Shown: positions 7,942 to 34,874 of the stretch, one piece after another
How the letters are laid out: every line of letters starts with the position of its first letter
Numbering within the stretch: position 1 is the first letter of the stretch
IMG/VR virus record: IMGVR_UViG_3300014913_000003
Span: 1 to 39,592 of that record
Source of the DNA: a virus
Reading direction: 5' to 3' (one strand)
Length of the DNA stretch: 39,592 bases
Program-made: the position numbers and the translations under genes
The notes under the pieces: model-generated
Seen by the model: only the letters and a program-made list of their open reading frames with translations
What the model was told of the DNA's origin: nothing
Databases searched by the model: none

Positions 7942-9840
7942 ATGGCAAATACATATCGCGGTGGCGGCACAAACAAAACGGCAGGAACTATCAAAAAAGA
8001 TGTTCCGACCAGAACGGACTCGCAAAGCGTTCCAACACGCAAAAGCACGGTTCCTGTTCCGCAAACAGCGACAACAACCCCTGTGGGGGTAGACATGATG
8101 CCCGGGGCTATGCAGCCGGGGGCGGCGGGACAGCCACAGCTAAATCAGGGGGCTCCGTTAAAAGCTCCTCCGACTCGTGCGGTTCCCACTACAAACCAAA
8201 AGCAGCACGAACAGGCTCGCGTTGACTTTAGGGACACCGGGCGATTCTCTGACACAAAGGAGGTGGATGCTTTCTTGAATGGAGATGCGCAAGCTCTTGG
8301 GGCTCAGGCACAAGCACCGACAACGCTAGAGGGATTCAGCCAACAAATAACAGGGCTGCTCTCTCCGGCTTCTACAAAGCCAGAGTCTTTCAATTCATAT
8401 CAGAAATATTTGGATTTAAGAGATGAATATAAGGCAGGGGATTTAGATTCTCAGGCGGCAGAATTGGGTGCTCAAATACGAGAACTCGAAGACACAACGG
8501 CAGACCGAATCCGGCAGGAGGAGGGGAAGTCTATTGCGGTCGGAGTTCAGGCGGGACGTATTTCAGAAATAGAACAACAACAAAACCTTAGAAACAGAGA
8601 GCTCACAAGAACATTACAGGTCGTGAACGACCAAAGAACGATTGCGAACAATACCGTTTCACAAATTATGGGGTATGCGCAAACAGATTACAAAAACGCG
8701 CTTGACCTATGGAACACGGAATATAACCAAAACTTACAGGCCACACAGATGGCAATGACCGCACAGCGTGACCAGAAGGCCGAAGAGCGGTGGTTTTTGG
8801 AGTTCAATCAGGCGAAAGAAGAGCGAGAAGAAGATATACAGAGAGATGTGGCAAAAGACAAGGCTGCATCGGAAAGATTTCAGCAAGAGTTCGGGCTTTC
8901 AAAAGAGAGAATACAGCTACAAAAAGACGAACAAGCGGCAATTCAAACGCGATTTGAGTCCGGACAAGACCTAGATAGGCTCAAATTAAAGTCTCAGATG
9001 GACATGCAGAGGGCAACAAACGCTCTTTCTGCGGCAAGAATCGGGGCGGCAGAAAAACAAAACGCATTTAATCAGATGATGTCTGAGCGGAGTATGCAGC
9101 TAAAAGAGCAGTCTCAGTCTGTGGCAGCAATGCAAACCGCATTCAACCTTGCGCAAGACGGACAGCTCGGGACACCTGATAAGTGGACTGACGCACAAAT
9201 CGCAAACAACGGACAACTTGAAAATAAATTAGGGGTTCCACAGGGGACTCTCGCAAATCTTTCATTGAATAACCCGGGAGACACTTGGAAAACAACTGTT
9301 ACAGACCCTGTCACCGGAGAAATTTCAGCAGTTCTGATGGGGGCCGATGGTTCAGTAAAAACAGAATCTCTTTCAGATGGGGCAATCCCAAGGAATGTAC
9401 AAGAGGCTTCAAATGCTTACGCACAGGGAGACGATTTCATTCTTGTTGAGGCGATGTATGGCACAGATGCTGCGAACCGAGGAAGCGCGCTGTATAACAA
9501 AGAATTAGCACTTTCTGCCGCAGCCAGCCTACCGGAATATTCCTCGCTAAATTCTGCCGAGAAAGAAAAGTTCAACACAGAGATGGGGGCGTTGTATGAC
9601 GCAGAAATGGCGAAGCAACCGGCCTCAGACTCTTCGCAATTTTTACCGGGAGGGATTGGGGAGACGTTTTCTGTTGCGATGCAAAATCGACTTGACCCGA
9701 CATCACAAATTTCAGGAGGAATGGAGGAGCGGGCAGCACAATCAGGGCCGTCTGGTGCAGACACTTGGACGCGCCTTGGCTACACAAAGGCAATGTGGGA
9801 CTCTCTTTCCCCAGAAGAACAAGATTACTTAAAAAGCTAA
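7942..9840 (+). CDS. Coiled-coil, Gln-rich virion protein (632 aa); internal/ejection or tape-measure-like
   Basis: Long helical Q/E/K-rich stretches; precedes the giant protein. Confidence 0.55.
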   Translation: MANTYRGGGTNKTAGTIKKDVPTRTDSQSVPTRKSTVPVPQTATTTPVGVDMMPGAMQPGAAGQPQLNQGAPLKAPPTRAVPTTNQKQHEQARVDFRDTGRFSDTKEVDAFLNGDAQALGAQAQAPTTLEGFSQQITGLLSPASTKPESFNSYQKYLDLRDEYKAGDLDSQAAELGAQIRELEDTTADRIRQEEGKSIAVGVQAGRISEIEQQQNLRNRELTRTLQVVNDQRTIANNTVSQIMGYAQTDYKNALDLWNTEYNQNLQATQMAMTAQRDQKAEERWFLEFNQAKEEREEDIQRDVAKDKAASERFQQEFGLSKERIQLQKDEQAAIQTRFESGQDLDRLKLKSQMDMQRATNALSAARIGAAEKQNAFNQMMSERSMQLKEQSQSVAAMQTAFNLAQDGQLGTPDKWTDAQIANNGQLENKLGVPQGTLANLSLNNPGDTWKTTVTDPVTGEISAVLMGADGSVKTESLSDGAIPRNVQEASNAYAQGDDFILVEAMYGTDAANRGSALYNKELALSAAASLPEYSSLNSAEKEKFNTEMGALYDAEMAKQPASDSSQFLPGGIGETFSVAMQNRLDPTSQISGGMEERAAQSGPSGADTWTRLGYTKAMWDSLSPEEQDYLKS

Positions 9841-29353: not shown

Positions 29354-29851
29354 ATGAAGGAGTATAGAGACATTTCCGGATATGAGGGGCTGTATAGTGT
29401 ATCTAGTGATGGGGAGGTGTTAAGTCTCCGTCGCGGGAAGCATCTTAGTCAGTGTTGCGAGACAAAGGGGTATATGTCTGTAATGCTTTGCAATAATGGG
29501 GTCAGTAAGCGAGTTCTGGTGCATCGCCTTGTTTATTCTGAGTTTGTTGGGGACATTTCTGGTCAAATAGACCATAAGGATGGCAACAGGAAGAATAACA
29601 AGCTAGAGAATTTAAGAGATGTTACGAGAGCGCAGGATCAATGGAATACGGTGGTTCAGAAAAACAAGACATGCTCCGTGAAGGGGGTGTATCGTGCTGG
29701 GGCAAGTTGGTATTCTGAGTTTAGGTGTAATGGAGAGCGGATAAGAAGTAAATGCTTTCGGCAGGAGGCGCAGGCGATTCGTTGGTATGAAATAGAGATT
29801 GTTAGGCATAGGGGGCGGCAAGCCTGTCCTCGAATAACTGGGAGCTGCTAA
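29354..29851 (+). mobile_element. Free-standing homing endonuclease: NUMOD4 + HNH_3 + AP2-like DNA-binding domain (165 aa)
   Basis: ISGYEGLYSVSSDGEVLSL (NUMOD4), IDHKDGNRKNNKLENLRDVTRAQDQWN (HNH_3), VKGVYRAGASWYSEFRCNGERIRSKCFRQEAQAIRWYE (AP2-like). Confidence 0.75.
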
Positions 29852-30003
29852 CCTCATGCAGCCGCTAAAGGGATGATAACCCTTGTGAGAATGACTCCGA
29901 AACTACGGAATTTAATCAGCCGTTAAACGGAGAGGGGTGAGAACCCCCAAGTTATGCCTTCGGGCTCGTGGCCTCTTCGGGGGCTACTAAATGTTCTTTG
30001 AGA
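29852..30003 (+). ncRNA. Structured RNA region (six short hairpins, two with UUCG tetraloops); function unknown
   Basis: Hairpins at 29868-29884, 29896-29909, 29920-29930, 29934-29947, 29956-29965 (GCC-UUCG-GGC) and 29971-29984 (GCCUC-UUCG-GGGGC); no ORF. Confidence 0.45.
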
Positions 30004-30180
30004 GATTGTATCGAGTGGTGGAATAGGTAGACACTACATACTGGGAAGAGCACCTGTGTACATTCACATAAAGACCCTCCCAAGGGAAATCTGGTCGCTC
30101 ATGCAAGGTGACTATACGAGTATTTAAGTGCGAAACTCACTATAATCCAAAACTCGTCAAATCCTTGCCTCGATACAATC
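30004..30180 (+). ncRNA. tRNA-Leu-like RNA with expansions (tRNA mimic, intron-bearing tRNA or pseudogene)
   Basis: A 12-bp closing helix, 30004-30015 / 30169-30180. CGAGTGGTGGAATAGGTAGACAC closely matches the E. coli tRNA-Leu 5' acceptor/D-arm. Stem 30103-30108 / 30163-30168 would enclose a canonical TTCAAAT T-loop if 30110-30156 were removed. Confidence 0.5.
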
Positions 30181-30193
30181 CTTGAGAGGATAA

Positions 30194-30266
30194 AGCGGAG
30201 TAGAGTATTGGTAACTCGCTGGACTCATAATCCGGAATAATGTCAGTTCAAATCTGTCCTTCGCAA
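30194..30266 (+). tRNA. tRNA-Met (anticodon CAT), with some initiator-like features
   Basis: Hand-folded. D arm GAGT-ATTGGTA-ACTC; anticodon arm CTGGA-CTCATAA-TCCGG; T arm GTCAG-TTCAAAT-CTGTC (one U-U mismatch). The acceptor has 6 bp plus an A-A mismatch at 1:72. The variable loop is 6 nt. Confidence 0.6.
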
Positions 30267-30290
30267 TCAAATTCTTAAAGACTATGCACA

Positions 30291-30464
30291 ATGGGGACAA
30301 TTACCAAGGGGACAATGCTCGCATACGTTGTATCTGTCTTTGTGGTGAAAATGCTAAACATTGTTATTGAGAGGCCGTGGACGAGCACGTTAGAAATATT
30401 TACTATTTTGTTCGGTGCTGGCGTTACTCTGGCAATCCTTATTGTTGGGTACAATGCTCCATAG
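30291..30464 (+). CDS. Small membrane protein with 2 predicted TM helices (57 aa)
   Basis: Hand-translated: MLAYVVSVFVVKMLNIVI and IFTILFGAGVTLAILIVG. Confidence 0.4.
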   Translation: MGTITKGTMLAYVVSVFVVKMLNIVIERPWTSTLEIFTILFGAGVTLAILIVGYNAP

Positions 30465-30519
30465 GGGGGGGGATATAACTAAGTCGGAAATTTAAGCATA
30501 TTATATAATTCAATCGCAA

Positions 30520-30969
30520 ATGAAGATTCTAGAAACGCATCCGGAGATAAAATCAAGAGAGGTCTTGTTGGGAGATTCTCAAAGACTCTTACAGTACGCC
30601 AAGGAAATGCACAAGCTCTGTTTTGAGCCGATTGGTATGTACCCGGGGGGTGAGGCGGTGGCACATGTGCAGGTCGCAGGAAAAGACCCGCTACGCTTCT
30701 TTGTGAAAAAAGATGGGACTATCTATATAAACCCGGTAATTACGAGCCAGAAACAGAAATATAAACACCGGGAGGGGTGTCTGTCGTTTGCGAATGAGTC
30801 TCCGGTTGAAGTAGAGAGATATAACTTGATAGAGGTCGAATTTGTTTTGGCGCATATAACGGCGAAACAAATAGTGACAGACGGTGGGCAGAAGGGGCGC
30901 TTCTCGGGGAAAGACGCTGCAATCTTTCAGCACGAGATAGAGCACTTTGATTTGGATTTAATTTATTAA
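30520..30969 (+). CDS. def: Peptide deformylase (149 aa)
   Basis: The three PDF motifs: GGEAVAHVQV (G.G.AA.Q-like), EGCLSF (EGCLS) and QHEIEHF (HE..H). Confidence 0.85.
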   Translation: MKILETHPEIKSREVLLGDSQRLLQYAKEMHKLCFEPIGMYPGGEAVAHVQVAGKDPLRFFVKKDGTIYINPVITSQKQKYKHREGCLSFANESPVEVERYNLIEVEFVLAHITAKQIVTDGGQKGRFSGKDAAIFQHEIEHFDLDLIY

Positions 30970-33002: not shown

Positions 33003-33387
33003 AAATTTTCGGGTACAATATTTTGTACGGCACGAGTGTGAGAAAAAACCAGAATATTCTTTTGGTGTGGGCTTTCCGGACTTGCAGAAGGTCAGTCTTG
33101 CGAAACTCATAAAGTTTTCTGAGACGGTCATAAATGTTCGAGAGCCACTTGGGGGCGAGGAGGTACATGTAACAATTGGGATGAAGCTCGTGAACACGAA
33201 GAGCAAGAGATTTTATGGGACGTATGTGAAGTTTTCACAGAAAACGCTAGAGAAGTATGTTCACGAGGGGGTTCTGGCTGCGAAGCTTGTGACAGGAGCC
33301 AGAGATTCGCACGCAGCGTTGGAAAAAAATCTGTATAAATACAAACTTGTTGACGGAGAGTTCCCGAAACCTTTCAAAACAGTATGA
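32968..33387 (+). CDS. Hypothetical protein immediately upstream of terL (139 aa)
   Basis: ORF track; ATGA overlap with terL. Confidence 0.55.
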   Translation: MNPETMNKKKLKNFRVQYFVRHECEKKPEYSFGVGFPDLQKVSLAKLIKFSETVINVREPLGGEEVHVTIGMKLVNTKSKRFYGTYVKFSQKTLEKYVHEGVLAAKLVTGARDSHAALEKNLYKYKLVDGEFPKPFKTV

Positions 33388-34874
33388 CAAAAAAATTCAC
33401 GAGAGAACAGCTTATGCGGGAATTGCTTAGGAGGACAAAGGAGCAGCCGCATCAGGTCTACATCCCCACAGGGAAGGGGGAGGAGTTCGTGAATACGGTT
33501 TTTGAGGGAAAATATTTCATCACACTTTTTTCTGCTGCGAATGGAATTGGAAAGAGCACAGTTGGATTTAACATGCTCGCTCATCTTATGTTTCCTTGTG
33601 GGAATAAATTTTTTCAGCAGAAGCTTATGGCGGAGTGGCCATATTTAAAAAGAGTGCGGATTGTGTCAGACCCGACGAATATTACAAAGAACATTGTTCC
33701 TGAATTGAAGAAGTGGCTGCCGAAAGGAAGGTATACTGCGAAAAAGGAGGGGAGAGCGTTTGAGTGTCTCTGGACTACTGATACTGGATGGACGATTGAC
33801 ATTATGTCTACGGAACAAGACCCGAAGGAGTTTGAGTCTGTGAACCTTGGATTGATTTGGATTGACGAGCCGTGCCCGGAAAATATTTACAAGGCATGTG
33901 TTTCTCGTTTGCGGATGGGAGGGAAGATGTTTATTACGGCGACACCGCTTACAGGCTCAGCGTGGATGTACGACAAAATTATAAACAGTGAGGACGCAGA
34001 GGCGGGGAAGAGGACTTTCATAGAGGCTTCTGTTTGGAGTGCGTGTAAGGGGCACCCAGAGGCAATACGAGGGTTTTTAAATAAGGAGAATATTGAGACA
34101 ATGATTGCTCAGTATGACGATGAAGACATGCAGGCTCGTGTTCTGGGGAAATTTCAGCACCTTACAGGAATGGTGTTCAAAAAATGGAATAGGCGTGTAC
34201 ATGTCATACCTCCGTTCGAGATGAAGCCAGAAGATTATTCTGTGTGGCAAATGCTAGACCCACACCCGAGAACAGAAGATGCGGCTCTTTGGTGCGCCAC
34301 AGACAGACACGGAAGACACTTTGTTGTGGACGAGCTTTGGGTAAATGGTACTACGAGTGATGTTTCATATAGAATTTTGGAAAAAGATGCGAGGCACAGG
34401 GTGGTAAAACACATTGCCGACCCTTGGATTTTCACAGCAGACCAACATACGCAATATTCTATGGCAGACAGATTCAGGACATTTGGATTGAATTATATCG
34501 AGGCGACGAAACAACGTGAGGCAAGTGACCGAAGAATTGCCGAGGCTTTGGATTATGCAAAAGTCGGAGAGGAATTTCTGAAACATCCAGATGTATATGT
34601 GTTTGATACATGCAAGAGAACCATTTATGAGATGGAGCATTACCGATGGGACGATTGGACGGGTAAATCAGCAGACAAGCGGGGGGCAAAACAGAAGCCT
34701 CTCGACAAAGACGACCACATGATTGAAAATCTCGGGAGATTCTTAATACAAGAGCCACGATTTGAGCCAATGCCAAACTATGCGCAGGACTTGCCACTTG
34801 ATAATATGAGAAGAGAAGATATGACATTTGCGGGACAGGACAACTCTCCGCTGGGCTCTGACCCATTTGCGTAA
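33384..34874 (+). CDS. terL: Terminase large subunit (496 aa)
   Basis: Walker A SAANGIGKST, Walker B LGLIWIDEP and coupling motif ITATP. The acidic residues of the C-terminal nuclease domain are also present. Confidence 0.85.
   Translation: MTKKFTREQLMRELLRRTKEQPHQVYIPTGKGEEFVNTVFEGKYFITLFSAANGIGKSTVGFNMLAHLMFPCGNKFFQQKLMAEWPYLKRVRIVSDPTNITKNIVPELKKWLPKGRYTAKKEGRAFECLWTTDTGWTIDIMSTEQDPKEFESVNLGLIWIDEPCPENIYKACVSRLRMGGKMFITATPLTGSAWMYDKIINSEDAEAGKRTFIEASVWSACKGHPEAIRGFLNKENIETMIAQYDDEDMQARVLGKFQHLTGMVFKKWNRRVHVIPPFEMKPEDYSVWQMLDPHPRTEDAALWCATDRHGRHFVVDELWVNGTTSDVSYRILEKDARHRVVKHIADPWIFTADQHTQYSMADRFRTFGLNYIEATKQREASDRRIAEALDYAKVGEEFLKHPDVYVFDTCKRTIYEMEHYRWDDWTGKSADKRGAKQKPLDKDDHMIENLGRFLIQEPRFEPMPNYAQDLPLDNMRREDMTFAGQDNSPLGSDPFA

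Follow-up and report, generated by a model that had tools for sequence, protein, structure and literature searches.

A probable, non-canonical initiator-type tRNA beside a predicted short peptide deformylase in a phage genome

The major determinant by which methionyl-tRNA formyltransferase (Fmt) recognizes a bacterial initiator tRNA is the mismatch at positions 1:72 in combination with base pairs 2:71 and 3:70, while the first and second of the three consecutive G:C pairs in the anticodon stem are contacted by A1339 and G1338 of the 16S rRNA (PMC5389676). Escherichia coli can be sustained by the middle pair G30:C40, or even by G30 alone, and natural initiators of the forms au/GC/GC, GC/GC/gu and au/GC/gu exist (PMC5389676). 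Viral peptide deformylases that are short and devoid of the ribosome-binding helix are also known, and they are active (PMC5591237). The virus record IMGVR_UViG_3300014913_000003 of IMG/VR, analysed over its whole length of 39,592 nucleotides (nt) and referred to here as the window, contains a tRNA gene with the anticodon CAU and, a short distance downstream on the same strand, a gene for a peptide deformylase (def). An earlier note on this DNA had read the two genes as a phage module acting on translation initiation and N-terminal maturation. The analysis described here points instead to a credible but non-standard phage initiator tRNA beside an ordinary deformylase, with an initiation-maturation module that does not appear to be real.

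ARAGORN and the Rfam family RF00005 agree exactly on a single tRNA at 30194..30266 of the + strand, with CAT as the anticodon in the DNA, as the note had described it. Rfam scores it at 50.1 bits, where the gathering threshold is 29, and by both searches this is the sole tRNA of the genome. The cloverleaf was taken from the Rfam alignment and from a separate parse, using standard tRNA numbering. At the acceptor end A1 and A72 are unpaired, followed by the pairs G2:C71, C3:G70, G4:C69, G5:U68, A6:U67 and G7:C66, with A73 as the discriminator base. The D stem GAGU/ACUC places A11 opposite U24 and closes a loop of 7 nt, and the anticodon stem consists of C27:G43, U28:G42, G29:C41, G30:C40 and A31:U39 with the loop CUCAUAA. 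The T loop is UUCAAAU, the T stem contains a U50xU64 mismatch, the variable region has 6 nt (AAUAAU) and the CCA end is not encoded. The remaining 19 stem pairs are standard, and the positions involved in tertiary interactions (U8, A14, G18, G19, U54, U55, C56 and A58) are all intact. The fold made by hand in the note, with A1xA72, A11:U24, G29:C41, G30:C40 and A31:U39, is confirmed by both derivations at each of these places. The pairs G4:C69 and A11:U24 as well as A73 are also counted among the determinants of initiators, of Fmt or of methionyl-tRNA synthetase (MetRS). In the window tRNA the Fmt and MetRS determinants G2:C71, C3:G70, G4:C69 and A73 are all present, and the first and second G:C pairs of the anticodon stem are kept within a run of three purine:pyrimidine pairs.

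BLAST with the 73 nt of the tRNA as query yielded only short matches without significance in E. coli genomes and GenBank phages and was uninformative, so that a structure-aware comparison was needed. Reference sets of 50 initiator, 67 elongator tRNA-Met and 151 tRNA-Ile2 sequences were drawn from genomes and metagenomes, the initiator label demanding a 1:72 mismatch and the elongator label a paired 1:72 together with a pyrimidine 11:purine 24 pair (Y11:R24). In E. coli the labels correspond to the four-copy tRNA beside amiC for the initiator, the two-copy tRNA in the leuW-glnUW cluster for the elongator and the annotated tRNA-Ile beside mug for Ile2. Covariance models of our own (R1-R3), trained on 50 initiator, 60 elongator-Met and 60 Ile2 cellular tRNAs, sorted all E. 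coli controls into the right isotype, with scores under the initiator, elongator and Ile2 models of 98.9/70.5/62.6 bits for metZWV, 55.0/86.5/84.1 bits for the metT type and 40.4/83.9/94.1 bits for ileX. For the window tRNA the three scores are 59.0, 42.8 and 36.8 bits, which puts the initiator model ahead by 16 bits over the elongator and by 22 bits over Ile2. Position-specific scoring, in which 267 of the 268 references were placed correctly on leave-one-out, gave 39.3, 22.0 and -24.3 bits in the same order, and the median identities at 60 structural positions were 41, 36 and 31. In this isotype comparison, of the kind that the note had proposed as a check, the initiator ranks above both elongator Met and Ile2(CAU).

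Tracing the call to its sources shows that it comes from the D stem, from the mismatch at 1:72 and from the 3' strand of the acceptor, with the anticodon stem favouring the elongator. Judged by sequence, the real initiator discriminators are the mismatch at 1:72, the pair A11:U24 and an acceptor stem of Met type.

The same design is found well beyond this genome. Two scans of viral contigs in IMG/VR for a D arm with a purine at position 11 followed by UCAUA (loci L355-L474 and L513-L631) gave at least 239 loci, at least 131 of which hold such a tRNA, and at least 133 unique CAU tRNAs with a purine 11:pyrimidine 24 pair (R11:Y24); all counts for this set, here and below, are counts among the matches listed. 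In the 133 tRNAs the acceptor pairs 2-7 are paired in 98-100% and position 1:72 in 31%. At 1:72, 92 tRNAs have a mismatch, 37 a weak pair (A-U or G-U) and 4 a G:C or C:G pair, so that 97% are mismatched or weak there; AxA, the form of the window, occurs in 16. The middle pair G30:C40 is retained in 127 (95%) and the complete set of three G:C pairs in 27 (20%), while the combination GC/GC/AU of the window tRNA is seen in three. The window tRNA fits the acceptor and D-arm pattern of this set, its nearest members being L387:9590-9661 (79% identity) and L471:2289-2360. As in the window, the initiator-type tRNA is the sole tRNA in 69 of the 131 loci. At least one further CAU tRNA lies beside it in 19 of them, and at L415 it is found together with CAU tRNAs of the Ile2 and elongator types, as expected for the initiator member of a set. 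The two hallmarks rarely coincide elsewhere: among the 432 non-CAU tRNAs of the same viral loci a 1:72 mismatch occurs in 18, R11:Y24 in 19 and both jointly in one. Their presence together in the window tRNA is more than chance.

Further members of the phage set lie at L428:22-93 and L417:3997-4068. Some members with this initiator-like design measure 84-92 nt, their variable region bearing a long class II-like arm of 16-20 nt (L359:5587-5674, L362:3793-3884, L443:1287-1374, L458:759-846 and L438:1377-1460), which is unexpected in Met tRNAs. A literature search on phrases like 'phage-encoded initiator tRNA' found no description under those phrases.

Several observations weigh against an initiator, and most of them concern the anticodon arm. 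The arm GGACUCAUAAUCC and the T loop were scanned exactly over one genome per prokaryotic species; the arm was found at 120 loci, nearly all of them tRNA-Ile2, in which the acceptor was of the GGGCC type and A26 and G27-U43 were present. The residues G29, G30 and A31 are also present in the elongator tRNA-Met of Bacteroidota and Ignavibacteria, and the arm of the window tRNA is of the type seen in cellular tRNA-Ile2 and in Bacteroidota elongator tRNA-Met. When 41 Bacteroidota genomes were sampled with the D-arm pattern and the anticodon stem left free, all 37 genomes having an initiator match had GGG at positions 29-31; in the window tRNA A31:U39 takes the place of the third G:C pair. Once the D stem is removed from the position-specific score, the elongator stands above the initiator, and the weight of the D stem is itself partly built in because the training sets were gathered with D-arm patterns. 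The 59 bits under the initiator model also fall far short of the 96-99 bits of cellular initiators. The T-stem mismatch and the unusual variable region could mean decay. Finally, no orthologue of the tRNA was found in the clade defined by the large terminase gene terL, the closest relatives included, so that purifying selection on the window tRNA is not demonstrable.

These points narrow the initiator assignment of the earlier note and leave its core standing. The unpaired 1:72 and A11:U24 hold as initiator marks. Since the arm is common to tRNA-Ile2 and Bacteroidota elongator tRNA-Met, G29:C41 and G30:C40 are not evidence for an initiator, and they were dropped as marks after the genome scan gave almost only tRNA-Ile2. 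The initiator model, the 1:72 mismatch, R11:Y24 and the Met-type acceptor thus argue for the assignment, and the missing third G:C pair and the limited specificity of the anticodon arm argue against it. As three consecutive G:C pairs are not found (GC/GC/AU), the tRNA is called initiator type and not a canonical member of the family. On balance the tRNA at 30194-30266 is probably methionine-accepting and of initiator type in a non-canonical form, and the deformylase a separate accessory gene.

An exact search of viral contigs for the anticodon arm gave five loci, with tRNAs in two of them. The cellular samples showed variation of their own. At loci L154:1469-1542, L155:1489-1562 and L480-L485, position 1:72 of cellular initiators may be CxU, UxU or CxC besides the textbook CxA, and some Pseudomonadota and one Opitutaceae genome have A29:U41 instead of the first G:C pair, the Pseudomonadota sample thereby including the au/GC/GC form of initiator. 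Each sampled Bacteroidota genome (L167-L168, L207-L234) has two elongator-type CAU tRNAs, in which position 32 is U or A with a Met-type acceptor and C with an acceptor of the GGGCC or GGUCC type (Ile2), so that this position may discriminate between Ile2 and elongator Met in Bacteroidota.

If the tRNA acts as an initiator, the infecting phage would have a source of start tRNA of its own. The tRNA would presumably be co-transcribed with the segment directly upstream (29997-30190), which ends 3 nt before it, excised by the host RNase P and 3' processing enzymes and finished at its 3' end by the CCA-adding enzyme of the host. Charging would be carried out by the host MetRS via the CAU anticodon and formylation by the host Fmt, after which initiation factor 2 (IF2) would bring the tRNA to the ribosomal P site. 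There, the tRNA would be inspected by A1339 and G1338 of the 16S rRNA at the first two G:C pairs, which it has retained.

Two rival explanations concern the function of the tRNA itself. The first, which we regard as unlikely, is a decaying or non-translational element in the shape of a tRNA, whether a remnant brought along with the homing endonuclease, a signal for processing the RNA that lies upstream, or a decoy that draws host nucleases cutting tRNA. It would account for the U50xU64 mismatch, the odd 6-nt variable region, the modest general tRNA score of 50.1 bits and the failure to find an orthologue in close relatives. It fits poorly with the intact tertiary positions and the 19 other, standard stem pairs, and with the 133 phage tRNAs, among the matches listed, that hold the same acceptor and D-arm pattern.

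The second, an elongator tRNA-Met serving internal AUG codons, is judged quite unlikely. Here G29:C41, G30:C40, A31:U39 and A9 agree with the elongator tRNA-Met of Bacteroidota, the position-specific score favours this isotype without the D stem, and AUG makes up 29.7 per 1000 codons of the phage. The acceptor end and the D stem speak against it: A1xA72 is unpaired, whereas position 1:72 is paired in 67 of 67 cellular elongators (pairing there being part of the label), and A11:U24 is not the Y11:R24 of an elongator. An unpaired 1:72 weakens binding by EF-Tu. Position 32 is C, as opposed to U or A in most of the sampled Bacteroidota elongators, and the covariance model for this isotype lies 16 bits below that for the initiator.

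The neighbouring gene was also followed up. The open reading frame (ORF) at 30520..30969 (+) encodes a protein of 149 aa that matches the Pfam family PF01327 at 1.1e-11 (45 bits against a cut-off of 22.8) and PHROG 2890 at 1.4e-12, with weak matches to solved deformylases (E about 1e-4). The catalytic residues Q51, E85-G86-C87 and H138-E139-x-x-H142 are in place, with the motifs EGCLS and HEIEH, and the C-terminal ribosome-binding helix is lacking. When the protein was aligned with nine phage homologues (ten clade members), Q51, C87 and H138 proved invariant and E139 and H142 were found in nine of ten. Motif 1 has the clade form A-x-A-H-x-Q, written G-E-A-V-A-H-V-Q in the window, and the short C-terminus ending in N-I-Y/F is specific to the clade. 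The look-alikes in the ESM Atlas are all viral deformylases of 151-167 aa. By these comparisons def encodes an ordinary short viral deformylase with predicted activity, and would deformylate nascent proteins in the manner of its short viral counterparts. The deformylase that the note had placed about 250 nt downstream of the tRNA is thereby supported by both Pfam and PHROG, and the gap from the end of the tRNA to the start of def is 253 nt, with both on the same strand. One homologue in the clade, L013:2216-2827, has lost the catalytic residues (EPCMS for EGCxS and QHCYD for QHExxH) and is considerably extended at the C-terminus; its sequence suggests a probably inactivated or repurposed copy.

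Whether the two genes belong together was addressed in relatives of the phage, 20 viral loci being fetched via terL and two more via def. A deformylase is present in 9-10 of these 22 loci (L002, L003, L006, L011, L013, L015, L016, L018 and L020), and in most of the relatives that have it, def lies directly upstream of terL. The CAU tRNA was not found in the fetched flanks of any related locus, including the 9-10 with def, and seven deformylase-bearing records, including two complete genomes, turned out to be free of tRNAs when searched over their full length. In L004, the nearest relative by terL (78% identity), the syntenic 3.4 kb contain neither tRNA nor def. In the other direction, no deformylase motif was found in the 1.96 Mb fetched around the 239 phage loci with the D arm and CAU, among the matches listed. 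Because def recurs beside terL where the tRNA is absent, the conserved linkage is that of def with terL and not that of def with the tRNA. The adjacency in the window is in any case weak evidence: the tRNA and def share a single variable region, flanked by the putative terS and by terL, which would account for their standing side by side.

The placement of def directly before terL is conserved in a manner unusual for an auxiliary gene, the end of def lying 45-180 nt before terL or overlapping its start in L006, L013, L016, L018 and L020. In L020 the terL homologue (L020:8001-9435) is split over two frames, 8001-8615 and 8662-9435, for which a frameshift, an error in sequencing or a short insertion might be responsible.

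A co-selected module, by which the phage would provide fMet-tRNA as well as the enzyme for its later deformylation, is accordingly rated very unlikely. The two genes are 253 nt apart on one strand with no convincing terminator between them, as such a module would have it. Yet the fetched flanks of 9-10 related loci with def are without a CAU tRNA, the seven whole def-bearing records are without any tRNA, and no locus out of the 239 selected by a D arm of initiator type and CAU shows the deformylase motif (1.96 Mb, among the matches listed). No further translation gene was found among the 42 ORFs scanned with Pfam. The module proposed in the earlier note does not survive these comparisons: the linkage recurs in no relative found, an outcome that the note itself had named as a refutation, and in the sequence fetched relatives with def lack the tRNA and the listed loci of initiator type lack a deformylase motif. 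The adjacency appears to be incidental, and the genes are, as far as their sequences and surroundings tell, neighbours and no functional unit.

Least probable of all is a tRNA-Ile2, in which the host TilS would turn C34 into lysidine for the reading of phage AUA codons: the arm GGACUCAUAAUCC with C32 is a hallmark of cellular tRNA-Ile2 and AUA makes up 33% of the phage Ile codons (19.7 per 1000), but the acceptor is of Met type (G2 C3 G4) and not GGGCC or GGUCC, G27-U43 and A26 are missing, R11:Y24 and an unpaired 1:72 are found in 0 of 151 Ile2 sequences, and the scores are the lowest of the three isotypes (36.8 bits by covariance, -24.3 by position-specific scoring).

The remainder of the locus helps to explain how an initiator-type tRNA might have come to stand beside def. 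The phage genome of 39,592 bp is complete, with direct terminal repeats, and every long ORF is on the + strand. A free-standing homing endonuclease of the HNH type (NUMOD4 + HNH_3) is encoded at 29354..29851 (+), 343 nt upstream of the tRNA, with matches to PF13392 (1.4e-12), PF07463 (4.4e-10) and PHROG HNH families. Between the tRNA and def, the ORF list includes a hydrophobic ORF of 57 codons (30291..30464, +) for which Pfam and PHROG gave no match; a run of 9 G (30464-30472) begins at the last base of its stop codon. The large terminase terL, recognized by Pfam Terminase_6N and used as the marker for finding the phage clade, lies at 33384..34874 (+), and in the window 2.4 kb of small ORFs without assigned function separate def from it. 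No homologue of the endonuclease or of the 57-codon ORF was found in the related loci, and since these two and the tRNA are without counterpart in relatives, the arrangement fits a local insertion. The tRNA probably arrived in the terS-terL stretch together with the HNH endonuclease, which is likely a vehicle or companion of the insertion of the RNA gene.

Searches of the surrounding DNA gave little else. At a permissive threshold Rfam found nothing besides the tRNA in 29800-30560, the segment 29997-30190 was at noise level under the three CAU-tRNA models and likewise without an Rfam match, and a scan for sigma-70 promoters and terminators around the tRNA-def locus stayed at background level. 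The Pfam scan, which covered 42 ORFs outside the structural genes at 1-17 kb, brought up neither Fmt nor methionine aminopeptidase, and no ribosomal protein, initiation factor or integrase either; beyond the parts described above, it recognized only a DnaB-like helicase and RusA, apart from one weak PDDEXK-like match. The statement that the genome nearly lacks Shine-Dalgarno sites was borne out: such a motif precedes one of 55 start codons, and the leaders are A-rich. Most tRNA genes of Bacteroidetes/Chlorobi are without an encoded CCA (PMC5143459). A Bacteroidota host is a guess from the scarcity of Shine-Dalgarno sites and the unencoded CCA, and nearest-neighbour identity of the window tRNA favoured no single phylum.

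With regard to phages in general, public phage contigs commonly hold CAU tRNAs whose D arm is of initiator type, and such a tRNA is often the sole one. Their tendency, among the matches listed, is to keep a weak or mismatched 1:72 and G30:C40 and usually to lose the three G:C pairs, and this loss of the full triplet agrees with E. coli genetics, in which G30:C40 is sufficient. It might be proposed that phages widely encode initiator tRNAs, that of the window among them, with an anticodon stem remodelled down to the one essential pair G30:C40, letting initiation persist under host shutdown; this wider reading is tentative and, in our estimate, rather unlikely. Remodelling of the 31:39 pair might serve as an escape from host nucleases that cut the anticodon stem-loop of tRNA-fMet, such as VapC-type toxins, or alternatively change proofreading by initiation factors. 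Position 39 is still C in 85 of the 133 phage tRNAs (among the matches listed), which does not favour an escape from VapC. If functional, the phage tRNAs would amount to a natural library of minimal initiator tRNAs and would offer a way to test how phages protect initiation against host defences that target tRNA.

Set beside the described systems, the window tRNA resembles in design the bacterial initiator tRNA-fMet (E. coli metZWV and metY, and the sampled Bacteroidota), with which it shares CAU, the unpaired 1:72, G2:C71, C3:G70, G4:C69, A73, A11:U24, G26, C32, G29:C41, G30:C40 and the T loop UUCAAAU. Some Bacteroidota initiators also have the D loop of 7 nt, and the cellular initiators at L179 and L180 agree with the window tRNA over the whole 3' acceptor strand, CUUCGCA-A. 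It differs from cellular initiators in having AxA where they have CxA, CxU, UxU or CxC, A31:U39 in place of G31:C39, C27:G43 and U28:G42 in place of U27:A43 and C28:G42, the D stem GAGU/ACUC, a variable region of AAUAAU as opposed to AGGUC, and the T-stem mismatch. Natural initiators short of three G:C pairs, from some mycoplasmas and alpha-proteobacteria, likewise keep G30:C40 and a run of three purine:pyrimidine pairs, but a changed third pair is G-U in them and not the A-U of the phage-encoded window tRNA (PMC5389676). The tRNA-Ile2 of E. coli (ileX and ileY) is identical in the anticodon loop and lower stem (G29, G30, A31 and C32) and differs in the acceptor stem, the D stem, 1:72, position 26 and 27:43.

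Among phages, the R11:Y24 CAU tRNAs of IMG/VR (L387:9590-9661, L471:2289-2360 and L030:4993-5064) have the same acceptor and D-arm design. The tRNA of L471 shares AxA, G26, C27, U28 and an AAUAU-like variable region with the window, and that of L030 the entire anticodon stem CUGGA/UCCGG. The best match reaches only 79-80% identity, among the matches listed, and the carrier phages are unrelated. In phage T4, the free-standing homing endonuclease SegB is encoded beside tRNA genes and could promote their spread between related phages. The window resembles the SegB region in having a free-standing homing endonuclease beside a phage tRNA gene, with the difference that its enzyme is of the HNH/NUMOD4 type. 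The predicted deformylase, for its part, has all three catalytic motifs in common with the short viral enzymes of Vibrio phage Vp16 and cyanophage S-SSM7, is like them about 140-150 aa long and without the C-terminal ribosome-binding helix, and departs from them in motif 1, which reads G-E-A-V-A-H-V-Q as against G-x-G-x-A-A-x-Q, and in the N-I-Y/F terminus of its clade (PMC5591237, PMC3660681).

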